DNA of 54,748 bases from a virus (taxonomy: Duplodnaviria > Heunggongvirae > Uroviricota > Caudoviricetes): IMG/VR virus record IMGVR_UViG_2909303794_000001. One strand, written 5' to 3'. Position numbers: made by a program. Below, piece after piece: positions 6,001 through 12,000 of the stretch. The number at the start of each line of letters is the position of its first letter. Positions within the stretch are counted from its first letter, which is position 1.

Positions 6001-9000
6001 TTTTCATCGCCAATAAAAGTGGCGATAGTGAATTTAGTCTGGATAGCCATAAGTGTTTGATCCATTCTTTGGGACTCCTGGCTGATTAAGTATGTCGATA
6101 AGGCGTTTCCATCCGTCACGTAATTTACGGGTGATTCGTTCAAGTAAAGATTCGGAAGGGCAGCCAGCAACAGGCCACCCTGCAATGGCATATTGCATGA
6201 TGTGCTCCTTATTTATACATAACGAAAAACGCCTCGAGTGAAGCGTTATTGGTATGCGGTAAAGCCGCACTCAGGCGGCCTTGATAGTCATATCATCTGA
6301 ATCAAATATTCCTGATGTATCGATATCGGTAATTCTTATTCCTTCGCTACCATCCATTGGAGGCCATCCTTCCTGACCATTTCCATCATTCCAGTCGAAC
6401 TCACACACAACACCATATGCATTTAAGTCGCTTGAAATTGCTATAAGCAGAGCATGTTGCGCCAGCATGATTAATACAGCATTTAATACAGAGCCGTGTT
6501 TATTGAGTCGGTATTCAGAGTCTGACCAGAAATTATTAATCTGGTGAAGTTTTTCCTCTGTCATTACGTCATGGTCGATTTCAATTTCTATTGATGCTTT
6601 CCAGTCGTAATCAATGATGTATTTTTTGATGTTTGACATCTATTCATATCCTCATAGATAAAAAATCGCCCTCACATTAGAGGGCAAAGAAGATTTCCAA
6701 TAATCAGAACAAGTCGGCTCCTGTTTAGTTACGAGCGACATTGCTCCGTGTATTCACTCGTTGGAATGAATACACAGTGCTTATTCGTACTAATAAAACA
6801 CCCAATTTTCTGTTTCTTGGTTGTGTCCAAAGTTATATTCAATATCTGGTGTTGATGTATCAATATTCTTCATACCATCAACAAGAGTTGATACAACAGC
6901 CAAATCTTGTTTGATTCTCATTAAATGGTATTTCTTCCGGCGCAATAAACTTTCAATGGCAAGTTTCTTCGTCGGGAATGCAAAAGATCTTTCTGCATTT
7001 TTTGCTACTTTCTTAATTGCATATCTATTTCTCCTTTGTTTCCATTCCTGTAACCACTGATTTGGTGCTGGTTTAAAATTAACAATCCAATGCGCAGGAA
7101 CCAACCATGCATAATGCTCTGTCTGATGAAAAGCTATATATTGAAGTGCGAATATTTTTATCCCATCTTCTTCAACTGTCGCCTGGAATCTCCAGAAAAC
7201 AGGCATTCCATCATGTTCAGTTTCTGATTCAGGAAAAGGTACGCTCCATGATTTTGTCATATCTCACCTCAAATAAGTGGTTTGCTGCCTAATTTCATTT
7301 TCTGGCGACCAACACAAGTCACCTCGCCGTCAGTTGTTTTGATTTCCGGTAGCCTGCCGCGTAAATGGCTACGTTTGGAAGACATACACCAGTTTCTGGT
7401 TGCTTATGTCCAAACTCATTCGCGTACACAATGGCCGCTCGCTCCAGATTGCGTCTGTATTCTTTCTGTTGCCAGATCACGTCCTGTGCCATGAACTTAA
7501 TTGGCTTAGCGTCTTCTATGCGCTCAGGCGTTTCGTGAGTATCTTTAGCCTGAATCTGCGCTCTGCTTAGAGTAGGGCGGTGTAATACTTCTGAACTTAT
7601 TGCTTCTTCGCGGGCCAGCACGCCGTTAGCTAATGCCTTTGCCTTTAAACGCTCACGACGACGAGAACGTGAATTGCCTTTGAACTGAGTTCTGCGTGTC
7701 ATATAGACCTCCTGATGAACTTTGGTGGTGTGGTAGGTGGGAGACCCATTTCGACCTGTTTCGGCCTACTTCAATTCGGCAATAGTCCCGCAGGCCTCGC
7801 CGCTTTACGTGCGACATATTCCCGTCCATGAACCCTTCACCACACCCCAAAGTTCACTTTGGTTATTGCGCTTTGTCAGCGCCGTAGATTCATATTCGAA
7901 TCGTTGTATATTCACCGCCCTGGTGAGTAGTGCGTCCTGCTGATGGGTGAACTTTATCTGAATGATAAATTAATGGCAATAGCAAAATGATAAATTCTCT
8001 TGGTTTTCAAATATCGTATTGATTCTTATGGTGTTTTATTTTGTTGTAGGAATTCGACAGGATAAATAAAGAGATTTGAGGGAGATCTGGATTGCGTTGT
8101 TTAGCAAGTTGTATCTATTTATTTTTCAACAAATACAATTGGTTATGTGTTTTTAGGTGTGGGGATCGTGAGGCAAAGAAAACCCGGCGCTGAGGCCGGG
8201 TTAATGCGTTAATGCTGGGGAGTGATTTTTTTGTTGTCTGTTGGCTGGGTATTTTGTGGCGGCGCTTGCAAAGTGGAAGGCTGTTGCAAAGGTGCGTGGT
8301 CTGACTTTAAAGCTGATACCAGCCCGGGAATCGCAACTATTACAGCGATAATGACACTAAAAATGGCTAATCGTATAGAAATACCCGACTGAACACCACT
8401 AATTGCGGTATTAACCCCTGTTATTTGTCCTTGAATTCCTTCGAATCTCCCATTAATTGCTTTTATATCGCCAGCAGCGCTATCCATCTTTCCATCGATC
8501 TTGGACGATAGAGAGCTTATGGCTGCATTAAGTGATGCAAATTGGACATTAACGCTTTCACGAGATAGAGCCATGTCAGCCCTAATGGAAGAAGCAATAG
8601 ACTCCATCTCTGCTTTATTAGCAGCTAAGCGAGCATCAAGTTCCTCTCTGCTGATCGTTCCCACTTCTTCCTCCGTTTGTGGCGGTTTTATGTAATTATT
8701 TTGCACCTTGGTGGGAGAATTATCAAATTCAGCCTCAAAATCGGAACCGCCAACAACCTTCAACCTCCGGCTTTCAGATATGTTGGTGTCTTGCTTTCCA
8801 TGATTATTTAAATTACTGTCGTCACTCATAATAGCTCTACGGTGAAAAATGATTCATTTTTATGAAGTTCATTTTTAGGGTCTTCATTATCTTGCAATAT
8901 CCCTATAACACTATACAGCCCTTTAGCTGGGACCCTAATTTCTTTCAATGTTACTATTACCTGTCCGCCAACCCCTGTTTCAAAATGGCTATCTTTCGTA

Positions 9001-12000
9001 TCGATGAAAAGTGAAACTGATTCCGAAGAGCCGTCAGGGAATTGAATTTCCTCACCTTTTTTTATAATTAGGTGCGCGGGGATTACCATAATACCCAAAT
9101 TATATCTTGAATTTGGTTTCAACCCGATCATACCAACCCTGAAATCAATTGATAGCCGCGCAGGAAATTCATTGCATGTAAAATTAAGCGTCGGTTGGTT
9201 GGGTTCTTCGCTGCTATCAAATGGGGTTATAAAAGATATTCTTTCTAAATTAAGTGCCATAAATTCTCCTGCATCGCTGTATGCTCTACGAGCATCTCTG
9301 CGATCATCCATCATCCAAACGTCTCTTCACTCATCCGAAGAAGCAGCAATCCGGGTCAGCACGCACAAGCTCAAGCGCATCAGTCAGCGAAAGTTCAGTA
9401 CTGTACTGATGCCATTTCATATCCTTCCGCATCCAATAGATTTTCCATCTATCCAGAGAACGTATGTACTTGATTCTTGCTGATGGCAGGATGTTTGTTT
9501 CACCTGGGTTGCCCTGCCACACGGGGCGCTGTTCGCCGATATCTATCGTTTGGTCATTGATGCTATAAACAATATCCAGTTCATTGCGGATATGTTCAGG
9601 CGGCCTTATGCTTTCAATGAATTGGTGAACTTCTTTTTTGACCGCTTGATATTCAAGGTCAGTGAACGCCATCTATCCTCCTCACCCAAACGTTTCTTCT
9701 GGCCACTGGTTACCAGCTATGTGACGATGAAGTCACGAACTTTTCAGCCACTCCCTTGCCTCGATGTCATCCAGATGGCGAGATTGCTTCAGAATACCAG
9801 CTACATACTCCACCTTTGCTACTTGATGATAAGGCAACGTTATAGGCCTGTGATCCTGGTTAATGCTTGTAAATTGGTATTCTCCATCTCTGTCATAGCC
9901 AAGAACCTTAATCATGTTGTGTCCTTCAACGGTTCTGACAAACACCTCATCACCCGGGAATACTTTGGTGTTAGGCTCAATGAGTACATATTCTCCTGAT
10001 TTTATTCTGGGCCACATGCTGTCTCCTTTCACACGAAGACCAAAGGCATCTGGATCATCGCTATAAATTTTGAGCCACCCATCGCGCTCTTCGGTCATCT
10101 CGATGGCACCATCAACACCAAGAATTGCCTCACCAACCACGCGCACTAACCCTTTTCTTACCTGACCGACAAAAGTTAAAGAATCTGAGCATGATGCAAT
10201 TGGTGTTACATCATGTACCAAATCAAGCCACCCATTAGGTAACCCAAGCGCGGCTTCAAATTTTCTTGCTAGTTTATCCCCTATGTTTCGAGTGCTTTTT
10301 TCACCGGAGACTTGCGTGAGTTGAGAAGGGCTAACCCCAAGCTTATCGGCAAAGCTTGCATTAGTGTTACCCGCGATTTTTTTATGCTCATCTAGCAAAA
10401 ACGCCAGATTCGATTTGCGAATATCTTTGTTTTCCATCTCACAATTTTCCCTCTATTTAGCAAATGGATAAATACGCAATATGATAAATTTACATTGCAG
10501 TTGATTTATCAAAATGGTAAAGTCGTTCTGTGTGATAAACGGAGGCACTAATGAGTAATGAACTACTACGCTGGCGAAAAGAGGCTTCTAGTGAGGAATG
10601 GAAGCGACTCGCCGCATTAGCGAAAACTTCAGTTGGCTATCTTGACCAGATTGCATATGGATTTCGAAGAGCTTCCCCTGATAAAGCGAATGCAATCGAA
10701 GAAGCTACTCGTAATTTCACGGGTTATAAACCTGTGAAAAAGGAAAACCTAGTGTTCGTATCGCGTAGAGCATCGGCTGCATAAGTAACACCGCTATTTT
10801 CACAATGGACATTCGTCCTACGTCGCTGACAAAGCGAGTCCCAATATATCTGACCAACTAAGGCCATATGCGTTTCCACGCATACCTTTCAACTAGCTAT
10901 TCACTATTGGAAATCTTAAGAAATGGAACAAACAAGTTACAGCAAACTATCACAGCGAGAAATTGATCGCGCTGAAACTGATTTACTCATCAACCTGTCA
11001 ACACTTACCCAGCGCGGTCTGGCAAAGATGATTGGCTGTCATGAATCGAAGATAAGCAGAACGGACTGGCGGTTTATTGCTTCGGTCCTGTGTGCTTTCG
11101 GAATGGCATCAGACATCAGTCCGATTAGCAGGGCTTTTAAGTATGCGCTTGATGGAATCACCAATAAAAAACGCCCGGCGGCAACCGAGCGTTCTGAACA
11201 AATCCAGATGGAATTCTGAGGGAATTACTGGATCAATCCACAGGAGTCATTATGACAAATACAGCAAAAATACTCAACTTCGGCAGAGGTAACTTTGCCG
11301 AACAGGAGCGTAATGTGGCAGATCTCGATGATGGTTACGCCAGACTATCAAATATGCTGATTGAGGCTTATTCAGGCGCAGATCTGACCAAGCGACAGTT
11401 TAAAGTGCTGCTTGCCATTCTGCGTAAAACCTATGGGTGGAATAAACCAATGGACAGAATCACCGATTCTCAACTTAGCGAGATTACAAAGTTACCTGTC
11501 AAACGGTGCAATGAAGCCAAGTTAGAACTCGTCAGAATGAATATTATCAAGCAGCAAGGCGGCATGTTTGGACCAAATAAAAACATCTCAGAATGGTGCA
11601 TCCCTCAAAACGAGGGAGGTTCCCCTAAAATGAGGGACATCCCTCAAAACGAGGGAAAATCCCCTAAAACGAGGGATAAAACATCCCTCAAATTAGGGGA
11701 TTGCTATCCCTCAAAACAGGGGGACACAAAAGACACTATTACAAAAGAAAAAAGAAAAGATTATTCGTCAGAGAATTCTGGCGAATCCTCTGACCAGCCA
11801 GAAAACGATCTTTCTGTGGTTAAACCGGATGCTGCAATTCAGAGCGGCAGCAAGTGGGGAACAGCAGAAGACCTGACCGCCGCAGAGTGGATGTTTGACA
11901 TGGTGAAGACCATCGCACCATCAGCCAGAAAACCGAATTTTGCAGGGTGGGCTAACGATATCCGCCTGATGCGTGAACGTGACGGACGTAACCACCGCGA

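Follow-up and report, generated by a model that had tools for sequence, protein, structure and literature searches.

Two independently assorting accessory modules behind the cI repressor of an Escherichia coli lambda-like prophage as candidates for phage exclusion

Two accessory modules, and not one cassette, follow the cI repressor gene of the E. coli lambda-like prophage analyzed here (a stretch of 54,748 nt, hereafter the window), in which cI, three minus-strand ORFs and a terminator lie in a row (Table 1). The modules, ORF1 (a DUF3024 gene) and the pair ORF2–ORF3, assort independently of each other. They may be regarded as good candidates for new phage-exclusion functions because the slot that they occupy holds proven anti-phage systems in related phages. 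The chances appear even that they are lysogen-expressed exclusion modules, in which ORF2 would bind and ORF3 would act at the membrane as the effector. A literature search returned no experimental work on any of the three proteins.

Table 1. Features of the cI operon in the window
Feature	Position	Strand	Evidence or remarks
cI-type prophage repressor, 234 aa	9733–10437	-	Peptidase_S24 E 4e-16, weak HTH_3, phrog_4 transcriptional repressor
Scar 1, non-coding lambda-type cI 3'-end remnant between cI stop and DUF3024 start	9682–9708	-	Agrees at 25/27 nt with the final 27 nt of cI from HK542 (lambda-immunity)
ORF1, DUF3024, 113 aa, stand-alone module 1	9331–9672	-	Full-length matches to PF11225, PDC-S43 and phrog_3467
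Scar 2, second lambda-type cI 3'-end remnant between DUF3024 stop and ORF2	9311–9329	-	Agrees with the HK542 cI 3' end at 18/19 nt
ORF2, predicted Ig-like β-sandwich, 144 aa from Met19	8826–9260	-	Maximal ORF 8826–9314, 162 aa
ORF3, predicted tail-anchored coiled-coil inner-membrane protein, 206 aa, conserved part of module 2	8209–8829	-	phrog_5820 E 1e-76
ORF3 residues ~21–47, partner-type-specific N-terminal motif	8689–8769	-	R.L+V[VI]GGS.FEA.F.[DN]S...Q[TN][NH]Y
ORF3 residues 58–152, SREELxAxLxxNKAE motif, then heptad coiled coil	8374–8658	-	Invariant Gly at a fixed heptad position
ORF3 residues 154–176, single transmembrane helix	8302–8370	-	Top 19-residue Kyte-Doolittle window 2.71, residues 154–172
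ORF3 30-residue P/Q-rich tail after the transmembrane helix	8209–8301	-	
Intrinsic terminator closing the cI operon, 933W tM equivalent	8172–8202	-	Stem AACCCGGC...GCCGGGTT and T-run

Organization of the cI operon

An earlier sequence-only reading had placed three co-oriented ORFs and a terminator directly behind cI, in the slot used by lambda for rexAB, and this layout was borne out together with its coordinates. cI and ORF1 are spaced by 60 nt, the ORF2 stop and the ORF3 start share an ATGA (4-nt overlap, 8826–8829), and the genes fall between cI and N (N at 7319–7702, left of the cargo genes), co-oriented with cI and with a tM-type terminator at their end. The sizes of 113, 162 and 206 aa and the 16-nt gap between ORF1 and ORF2 held good for the maximal ORFs, but not for the ORF2 start. 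The true start of ORF2 is almost certainly Met19 (window 9260), because AGGAG is located 6 nt upstream and the homologues, all 141–153 aa in length, begin there; the real ORF1–ORF2 gap would therefore be ~70 nt. The HK542 equivalent of the stretch upstream of Met19 contains stop codons.

The C-terminal half of cI is ~98% DNA-identical to that of 933W cI. The terminator comprises an 8-bp stem with six G-C pairs (8202–8181) followed by a T-run to about 8172, and its DNA is common to the window, 933W and HK542/HK244; in 933W, the same feature is annotated as "tM; putative terminator for pM transcript." Between cI and this terminator, no further terminator-like site was detected on the minus strand, and the two promoter-like matches on that strand are no more than shuffled sequences yield. 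It is highly probable that ORF1, ORF2 and ORF3 are co-transcribed with cI, the presumed first gene of a pRM operon. All three ORFs are real genes, as comparison with diverged homologues revealed strong purifying selection on each (dN 0.11–0.54 with saturated dS; dN/dS 0.08–0.17 in the only comparisons where it was computable).

Two modules separated by cI remnants

Each of the two scars had a score reached by 0 of 2000 shuffles. In E. coli SCU-104, the scar 1 sequence is the genuine end of cI (SQWPEETFG followed by the stop codon), with DUF3024 directly next. The ATGA of scar 2 gives rise to the spurious upstream ATG of the 162-aa ORF2. In 933W, scar 2 is likewise found behind DUF3024, and the window and 933W part ~40 nt past the DUF3024 stop. 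Such scars show a route by which cargo is exchanged between phages of differing immunity.

The earlier view of a single three-gene cassette was not upheld, as DUF3024 and the ORF2–ORF3 pair each occur with and without the other. The order cI-ORF2-ORF3 without DUF3024 was found in HK542/HK244 and in many E. coli. Among 80 DUF3024 loci in IMG/VR, the gene was followed by L0083-Stk-L0081 in ~30, by ORF2–ORF3 in ~13 and by other cargo in the rest. Other cargo seen behind DUF3024 includes a ParA-like ATPase, an NYN protein and the candidate system PDC-M63. One locus (L131) carries in this slot a pair that appears HicAB-like by eye. Module 2 is rare: it occurs in 51 of the 5426 E. coli genomes and, among 50,697 phage records, in 2. 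Matches to a 2.4-kb query running from cI across DUF3024 to the terminator were found in 1171 of the 5426 complete E. coli genomes, a count that applies to the whole query and not to DUF3024 alone.

ORF1 belongs to the DUF3024 family

The sequence-only reading had assigned none of the three proteins to a family, which was found to be valid for ORF2 and ORF3 in PADLOC-DB v2.0.0 (zero matches) but not for ORF1. Searches of Pfam and PADLOC matched ORF1 to PF11225 (E 2e-31; 108.7 bits against a cut-off of 24.9; profile positions 2–112 of 112) and PDC-S43 (E 7e-42; positions 1–115 of 115), and it also matched phrog_3467 (E 5e-67). By these profile matches, ORF1 is a member of Pfam DUF3024, candidate PDC-S43 and phrog_3467. 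PDC-S43 is one of 145 PDC candidates predicted by "guilt-by-embedding" (source preprint), and the PDC status of DUF3024 rests on its occurrence embedded within known defence systems. No paper mentioning DUF3024 was found in a literature search.

A GGAGG precedes the ATG of ORF1 by 5 nt. The C-terminal end DPDCCFFG was confirmed, and both termini, MAFxDxE and CF[FW]G, are invariant in DUF3024. The AF2 model (pLDDT 91) comprises a helix, a five-stranded sheet and a second helix. PsiB ranked only 16th among unrelated α/β folds, a match that was not significant. DUF3024 is also found away from any repressor, and in several prophages, it is adjoined by dinI.

Module 1 would consist of a small non-enzymatic α/β protein heading the slot in many lambdoid prophages. 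An anti-phage role for DUF3024 is possible, at slightly less than an even chance. It is usually the first gene behind cI across many prophages, whatever cargo comes next, and from this position, it could serve the immunity circuit by tuning repressor cleavage, RecA or induction. This forms part of a wider alternative in which the genes serve lysogenic conversion or housekeeping, with ORF2–ORF3 altering envelope physiology or host interaction. The proximity of dinI to DUF3024 would suit such a role, as would the precedent of the lambda morons bor and lom, which have non-defence functions. However, the non-significant rank of PsiB, the occurrence of DUF3024 away from repressors and within defence systems, and the near absence of ORF3 residues exposed outside the cell argue against it. 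CP53-type and HK542-type prophages possess the same or related repressors without DUF3024, and hence, DUF3024 is dispensable for immunity. Housekeeping or conversion is considered quite unlikely.

ORF2 and ORF3 form a modular pair

ORF2 (phrog_5893, E 3e-50) is predicted to be a cytoplasmic Ig-like β-sandwich, a small binding-type fold of generic character in which catalytic features are absent. The coiled-coil-like center and the single C-terminal transmembrane helix earlier ascribed to ORF3 were recovered as a heptad pattern at residues ~58–152 and a hydrophobic window at residues 154–172. The invariant columns of ORF3 are G113, G127, G131, G138, G145 and G149, and the homologues vary by 7-residue indels. 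The motif PIIIQVP that follows the transmembrane helix is conserved in most homologues, and the window copy reads PSTLQAPP. The N-terminus of ORF3 is expected to lie in the cytoplasm.

The ORF3 homologues, which make up 28 clusters across Enterobacterales, are always preceded by a small partner gene. A repressor is located directly upstream in ~43 of 47 loci, and these repressors represent at least eight families. The partners fall into at least three families with no detectable homology between them (hhalign probability <1%), and every alternative partner lacked a match in PADLOC-DB v2.0.0. The N-terminus of ORF3 co-varies with the partner family: the motif at residues ~21–47 is common to all ORF3 proteins with an ORF2-type partner, including a Citrobacter copy of 44% overall identity, whereas with type B, C or D partners, unrelated sequence takes its place. 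The natural lesions among the 51 E. coli genomes, two IS1 insertions and two in-frame deletions, struck ORF3 and never ORF2 alone, which fits with ORF3 being a costly effector.

Assignment of ORF3 to the alpha-pore-forming toxins (ClyA/SmhB/AhlB/MakE) was considered and rejected, as the resemblances were recurrent but all below threshold (SmhB, E 0.48 and 0.013; AhlB, E 0.71; MakE, 15.7 bits against a cut-off of 360). The similarity was confined to the Gly-rich helix and the transmembrane segment. One transmembrane helix followed by a short periplasmic tail is equally compatible with a tether and a pore.

Proposed function of the two modules

In the proposed scheme, two stacked accessory ("moron") modules behind cI would be read from the maintenance promoter in the lysogen, with transcription ending at the tM-type terminator. 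Within the translationally coupled pair of module 2, ORF2 would dock onto the partner-specific N-terminal peptide of ORF3, while ORF3, anchored by its C-terminal helix on the cytoplasmic side of the inner membrane, would oligomerize through the coiled coil. ORF2 could serve as the specificity or sensor subunit recognizing a phage product, and ORF3 as the conserved membrane effector, which, once activated, would compromise the membrane. The pair may in this way exclude superinfecting phages, following a RexA/RexB-like logic with unrelated proteins. Against a defence role, location in a hotspot amounts to no more than guilt by association, and lambda itself carries morons, such as bor and lom, that do not serve defence. 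The generic fold of ORF2, the lack of PADLOC-DB v2.0.0 matches for ORF2, ORF3 and the alternative partners, and the rarity of module 2 count on the same side. The odds that module 2 is anti-phage are judged to be balanced, and the specific sensor and membrane-effector abortive mechanism is rather unlikely to be correct in this form.

The same architecture could bring about superinfection exclusion at the injection step, with ORF3 doing no more than tether ORF2 to the cytoplasmic side of the inner membrane, so that the Ig-like domain binds and blocks an ejection or tape-measure protein of the incoming phage, or the host channel exploited by it, and the cell survives. ORF3 does resemble a tail-anchored scaffold (coiled coil, one transmembrane helix, short tail), its variable partner is a binding-type fold without catalytic features, and their co-variation suits a dock-and-display design; SNIPE provides a precedent for membrane-localized defence at the injection site (PMC13190303). 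However, the coiled coil, Gly face, transmembrane helix and PIIIQVP are the parts most conserved across partner types, beyond the need of a passive tether, the repeated natural inactivation of ORF3 suggests a cost, and there is no periplasmic domain to meet the phage tail. An injection block is rated as unlikely.

The lesions also bear on a toxin–antitoxin-like addiction pair, in which a membrane toxin, ORF3, would be neutralized by ORF2, the pair acting mainly in prophage maintenance. Disruption of ORF3 only, with ORF2 always intact, is in keeping with this arrangement, as are the small upstream gene overlapping the downstream gene by 4 nt and the HicAB-like pair among the slot cargo. Against it, unrelated partner families would each have to neutralize the same toxin via a variable N-terminal peptide, and the repressor-operon position implies constitutive co-expression with no obvious differential stability. 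Neither ORF2 nor ORF3 showed homology to toxin–antitoxin families in Pfam, NCBIfam or PADLOC. An addiction pair is improbable; toxin–antitoxin and abortive-infection roles are compatible and not mutually exclusive.

The effector-and-partner reading of module 2 could possibly be extended to the family as a whole. The ORF3 family might represent a previously unrecognized class of modular prophage immunity in Enterobacterales, in which a constant tail-anchored coiled-coil membrane effector co-transcribed with the repressor is combined with swappable small sensors (at least four unrelated families) that dock on matching N-terminal peptides and re-target it to different phages, DUF3024 being a separate new single-gene defence heading the hotspot. 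This extension is tentative and somewhat doubtful.

Prophage-encoded exclusion (rexAB, stk, bstA) classically resides between cI and N, although most of the cargo there is uncharacterized. If active, ORF2–ORF3 would be a defence system without homology to any catalogued one and of unusually explicit modular design, with a conserved membrane effector, swappable partners and matching docking peptides, which makes specificity swapping directly testable. HK542, an isolated and sequenced coliphage with the pair behind a lambda-type cI, renders the system tractable. DUF3024 is present in 933W-type Shiga-toxin phages, and any function it has would thus bear on the biology of Stx prophages.

Comparison with known systems

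The cI-to-N interval is a recognized mosaic hotspot, and the earlier statement that lambdoid phages carry differing exclusion genes in it is supported by rexAB and bstA (PMC8585504) and by Stk, which matches PD-T4-6. BstA of BTP1 and other prophages is an abortive-infection protein encoded downstream of the repressor, presumably sharing its promoter, and the locus architecture is conserved over diverse prophages (PMC8585504). BstA is a single protein localizing to sites of phage DNA replication, in contrast to the ORF2–ORF3 pair, and no window protein matched the BstA models in the PADLOC-DB search. SNIPE is a nuclease bound to the membrane and associates with ManYZ and with the tape measure protein (PMC13190303). 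Its likeness to module 2 is conceptual only and lies in the constitutive placement of a defence protein at the inner membrane, the site of phage genome entry. ORF2 and ORF3 show neither a nuclease or other enzymatic signature nor homology to it.

In lambda, this slot is filled by rexAB, which lies immediately downstream of cI, in the same orientation, and ahead of the terminator and pL. The logic proposed for ORF2/ORF3 is shared with RexA/RexB, i.e., a soluble cytoplasmic and an inner-membrane component expressed in the lysogen. However, RexB is polytopic in the membrane, in contrast to the predicted single-pass, tail-anchored coiled coil of ORF3. RexA binds DNA (PMC11077077), unlike the predicted Ig-like sandwich of ORF2. 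The Rex family was absent from the Pfam, PADLOC, PHROG and NCBIfam matches of all three proteins.

The order of the 933W cI operon is cI-L0084(DUF3024)-L0083-stk-L0081-tM. The L0084 gene is 98% identical to ORF1, and 933W and the window share the cI C-terminal half, both cI 3'-end scars and the terminator. L0083-stk-L0081 is swapped for ORF2–ORF3 in the window, which retains only DUF3024 of the 933W cargo and has no kinase in 8209–9672. Stk is said, from work by Friedman et al. in 2011, to cause abortive infection of HK97. As a positive control, 933W Stk matched PADLOC PD-T4-6 (E 1e-37) and also mad6. The stk genes of 933W and phi24B, which lie beyond DUF3024 in this operon, are reported to be under pRM control and expressed in the lysogen (PMC3430580; PMC4651098), so that transcription in 933W must cross DUF3024.

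Near-identical copies of module 2 are found in HK542/HK244 (JQ086373, EF120458, EF120457), where ORF2–ORF3 is 99.6% DNA-identical over 1052 nt, with the same order and 4-nt overlap. The HK542/HK244 pair (gp35-gp36), annotated merely as hypothetical proteins, is positioned directly behind a lambda-type cI and is followed by the same terminator. HK542/HK244 have lambda immunity without DUF3024, whereas the window combines a different repressor N-terminal domain with DUF3024.

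Gene layout and coding status

The repressor gene cI is followed on the minus strand by three co-oriented ORFs and a terminator, and the gaps and overlap between them reproduced exactly the layout that an earlier sequence-only reading had described. No second minus-strand terminator-like site was detected from cI to the terminator, the same region contained no RNA family in Rfam, and minus-strand promoter-like matches were not in excess over shuffled sequence. In comparisons with diverged homologs, all three ORFs gave dN values of 0.11–0.54 with saturated dS (dN/dS of 0.08–0.17 where computable). 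ORF1, ORF2, and ORF3 are real genes.

The true start of ORF2 is almost certainly Met19, which gives a protein of 144 aa. An AGGAG motif lies 6 nt upstream of this codon, all ORF2 homologs are 141–153 aa long with the first residue at the Met19 equivalent, and HK542 carries in-frame stops in the stretch matching the upstream extension. The 18 surplus codons of the 162-aa ORF fall within the recombination-scar spacer, in which scar 2 (the ORF1–ORF2 spacer) supplies a spurious upstream ATG.

Coordinates of the cI-to-terminator region and of other features of the prophage
Feature	Position	Strand	Remarks
cI	9733-10437	minus	234 aa; Peptidase_S24 and HTH
Scar 1	9682-9708		cI–ORF1 spacer
ORF1 (DUF3024)	9331-9672	minus	113 aa; 60-nt gap from cI
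Scar 2	9311-9329		ORF1–ORF2 spacer
ORF2, maximal ORF	8826-9314	minus	162 aa; 16-nt gap from ORF1
ORF2, Met19	9260	minus	almost certain start
ORF3	8209-8829	minus	206 aa; ATGA overlap with ORF2
ORF3, P/Q-rich tail	8209-8301	minus	follows TM helix
Strong intrinsic terminator	8202-8181 (stem), then T-run	minus	closes the gene row
N-antiterminator ORF	7319-7702	minus	intact; 127 aa; arginine-rich at N-terminus
Lambda cIII thermoregulator element	6153-6211	minus	Rfam
tRNA	18928-19000	plus	Rfam
sRNA STnc100	19853-20025	plus	Rfam
SIB antitoxin RNA	53614-53756	minus	Rfam

At the position of the N-antiterminator ORF, the RefSeq annotation of the identical genomes (L003, L019) shows a 69-nt pseudogene ("regulator, incomplete") and nothing else. 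In E. coli 14EC007 (L003 1-1994; identical to the window over the cI-to-terminator region), the integrase is annotated as truncated and adjoins an IS3-family element; in that strain at least, excision of the prophage may no longer be possible.

Two modules and the cI 3′-end scars

The window is a lambdoid prophage of E. coli whose early region resembles that of 933W, and it is 100% identical to E. coli 14EC007 and to several further strains. Genome comparison showed that the region from cI to the terminator is a mosaic. In 933W and its Stx-phage relatives, the order is cI-L0084(DUF3024)-L0083-stk-L0081-tM, where stk encodes an abortive-infection kinase and tM is annotated as the putative terminator for the pM transcript, whereas HK542 and HK244, of lambda immunity, have cI-ORF2-ORF3-terminator without DUF3024, their ORF2-ORF3 being 99.6% identical to that of the window. 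The three genes had been taken for a single cassette, but E. coli genomes show all combinations: the window-type cI with DUF3024 and the ORF2-ORF3 pair, the window-type cI with the pair but without DUF3024 (strain CP53), another cI with DUF3024 and the pair (strain SCU-104), and lambda cI with the pair. DUF3024 and ORF2-ORF3 are hence two modules. Of 5426 complete E. coli genomes, 51 carried the pair, and a search of 50,697 phage records located it in HK542/HK244 only.

The spacers retain traces of these exchanges. After the stop codon of the window cI, 25 of the 27 nt of scar 1 match the lambda-type cI 3′ end, as do 18 of the 19 nt of scar 2 after the DUF3024 stop; neither score was reached in any of 2000 shuffles. 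In SCU-104, the scar 1 sequence is a genuine cI end (...SQWPEETFG*) with DUF3024 directly after it, and in CP53 an HK542-type ORF2 leader directly adjoins the scar. Both scars are present in 933W, which departs from the window ∼40 nt past the DUF3024 stop; the other exchange boundary between the two is the common terminator. The scars and the shared terminator together indicate that cargo is exchanged by recombination, with the conserved cI 3′ end on one side and tM on the other. DUF3024 is bracketed by a short duplication of the cI end, and the nested scars act as a recombination linker for cargo exchange between phages of different immunity. Two nested cI 3′-end remnants flanking DUF3024 were seen in the window, 933W (L002), L018, and L019.

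ORF1 belongs to the DUF3024 family

No family had been recognized for any of the three proteins on first reading. This was wrong for ORF1, which is a full-length match to Pfam DUF3024, the PADLOC phage-defence candidate PDC-S43, and phrog_3467; ORF2 and ORF3 matched only PHROGs 5893 and 5820, respectively, both of function unknown, and gave no match in Pfam, NCBIfam, or PADLOC-DB v2.0.0. PDC-S43 belongs to a set of 145 putative systems, candidates that were predicted from genes nested within known defence systems. The AlphaFold model of DUF3024 (pLDDT 91) places a five-stranded sheet between two helices in sequence order and ends in a flexible tail. Both termini are invariant (N-terminal MAFxDxE and C-terminal CF[FW]G; alignment A4), and an aromatic-rich hairpin, W-x2-YW-x-R-x4-W, is also present. 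A match of ORF1 to AvrPto (E 0.07–0.16) was judged to be noise.

In almost all of 80 IMG/VR loci (L066–L145), DUF3024 directly follows the gene of a cI-type repressor, with at least five kinds of repressor represented. Given this placement, an action of DUF3024 in the immunity or induction circuit is an alternative to a role as accessory cargo. The genes behind it are L0083-Stk-L0081 in ∼30 of the 80 loci, ORF2-ORF3 in ∼13, and an uncharacterized pair of 177 and 86 aa in a further ∼13; other loci carry ParA-like ATPases of 351 and 368 aa, an NYN-domain protein, pairs of the phage-defence candidate PDC-M63 (DUF6932 plus partner), a 348-aa protein paired with a multi-TM 150-aa protein, or, by eye, a HicAB-like pair. 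This cargo is highly diverse and mostly uncharacterized. Away from repressors, DUF3024 adjoins dinI in Erwinia, with the full L0083-Stk-L0081 set at 86%, 77%, and 70% identity; it stands alone in Rahnella, adjoining dinI and tail-fibre genes, and in Yersinia ruckeri it adjoins a P63C protein near smpB, a locus taken to be an ssrA-type integration site.

Architecture of ORF2 and ORF3

ORF2 is modelled (pLDDT 83) as an all-beta Ig-like sandwich; it has neither signal peptide nor TM segment, and in a viral structure library it matched uncharacterized phage proteins only. A profile search of 1.8 billion proteins showed the family to be small (∼20 clusters at 50% identity). The profile also gave multi-stretch matches, up to 22 stretches, to giant proteins of 2000–4200 aa (P0038, P0049, P0050, P0053), which presumably reflect the generic Ig-like fold, with repeats of a similar domain in large surface proteins. 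Matches to RuvB-like 2 and estrogen receptor (E of 0.09 or worse) were rejected as noise.

The coiled-coil centre and single C-terminal transmembrane helix noted at first for ORF3 were borne out. A disordered N-terminus (residues 1–57) is followed by a SREELxAxLxxNKAE motif, nearly invariant among homologs, and by a heptad-repeat coiled coil whose invariant glycines share a single heptad position and in which homologs differ by 7-residue indels; hendecad repeats were rejected on this register. One TM helix (residues 154–176) and a short P/Q-rich tail complete the protein. Since ORF3 has no signal peptide and a 150-residue part precedes the helix, it would most simply be a tail-anchored protein facing the cytoplasm. 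With such a membrane protein, the pair might alternatively be a membrane-tethered blocker of genome injection, for which SNIPE offers a conceptual precedent. In most homologs, a conserved PIIIQVP motif follows directly after the TM helix (alignment A5); it is replaced by PSTLQAPP in ORF3 of E. coli and the window and by an (AP)n repeat in that of Citrobacter freundii.

Several candidate relatives of ORF3 were rejected. LmuB (E 0.016) and LeoC (E 0.0013, with the C. koseri homolog alone) were judged to be coiled-coil, TM, or composition noise, as were Baculo_PEP_C (under the gathering score), SlaB and MakE (far under their cut-offs), and influenza HA2, reovirus sigma-1, cavin, ApoE, SmhB, and AhlB (E of 0.012 or worse).

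Genomic context and co-variation of the pair

ORF3 homologs occur in Escherichia, Klebsiella, Enterobacter, Citrobacter, Salmonella, Cedecea, Leclercia, Yersinia, Pectobacterium, and Xenorhabdus; a scan of species-representative genome contigs yielded only two ORF3 loci. In ∼43 of the 47 loci examined, the gene directly preceding the pair, or preceding DUF3024 where this heads the pair, encodes a repressor, and these repressors belong to at least eight families, from lambda-type S24 to short Rac-like HTH proteins with YdaS/YdaT opposite. The exceptional loci are other sites typical of accessory genes: one adjoins dinI (L012), one follows tail genes (L022), two have upstream genes of no assigned identity (L056, L059), and in L057 two small membrane proteins intervene.

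ORF3 always has a gene for a small protein just upstream, tightly spaced or overlapping, but the type of this partner varies. Type A is the ORF2-type sandwich, with a distant 149-aa variant in Salmonella; types B (∼98–101 aa), C (∼92–97 aa), and D (112–120 aa, Cys-rich) are other families. Types A, B, and C lack profile–profile similarity (probability <1%), and the partner types had no match in Pfam or PADLOC. Every ORF3 with an ORF2-type partner carries the N-terminal motif R.L+V[VI]GGS.FEA.F.[DN]S...Q[TN][NH]Y, still present in Citrobacter ORF3 at 44% overall identity, whereas with a B, C, or D partner the ORF3 N-terminus is unrelated to it. This co-variation is the strongest evidence that both products work together, and because the ORF3 N-terminus tracks the partner type, it suggests that the partner docks there.

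Natural lesions among the 51 E. coli copies point the same way regarding the roles of the pair. Two IS1 insertions cut ORF3 short at residue ∼121, and two in-frame deletions remove residues 13–114 cleanly between two "GK" codon repeats (L146, E. coli EM18-18-42; L147, E. coli 90-3040; matches H84, H85, H93, H94); ORF2 is intact in all four copies. For such a two-gene unit, a toxin–antitoxin-like stabilizer is another possible reading.

Expression and possible function

Evidence for expression in the lysogen comes from two studies of related phages. In one, stk is reported to be controlled by pRM and expressed in lysogens (PMC3430580); in the other, RNA-seq of a phi24B lysogen showed no change in cI or stk upon induction (PMC4651098). 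As DUF3024 sits between cI and stk, transcription in such phages must cross it. The cI–N interval is a mosaic hotspot, home to rexAB and bstA, and few promoters are more active in lysogens than that of the repressor (PMC8585504). The 933W Stk protein matches the validated PD-T4-6 kinase family of PADLOC. Position, arrangement, and neighbouring cargo make lysogen-expressed accessory modules the best reading of the window genes, modules that most plausibly serve phage exclusion, a role suggested by position; they could alternatively provide a non-phage conversion function.

GenBank has listed the ORF2-ORF3 pair as "hypothetical" ever since the immunity regions of HK244/HK542 were entered, and DUF3024 is an already catalogued candidate. 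No publications were found on DUF3024, the RefSeq accessions of these proteins, or the HK542 locus tags, although earlier functional data may exist. As far as could be checked, the two-module split with cI-end scars, the conserved gene order in which a variable partner stands between repressor and ORF3, and the co-variation of partner and ORF3 N-terminus appear to be new. The cassette is viewed as lysogen-expressed cargo in the known cI–N hotspot, with a putative defence role deduced from position, and part of it is a listed candidate. Within the exclusion reading, ORF2 would be the binder or sensor and ORF3 the conserved membrane effector, and the pair is proposed to work like RexAB, though unrelated to it.
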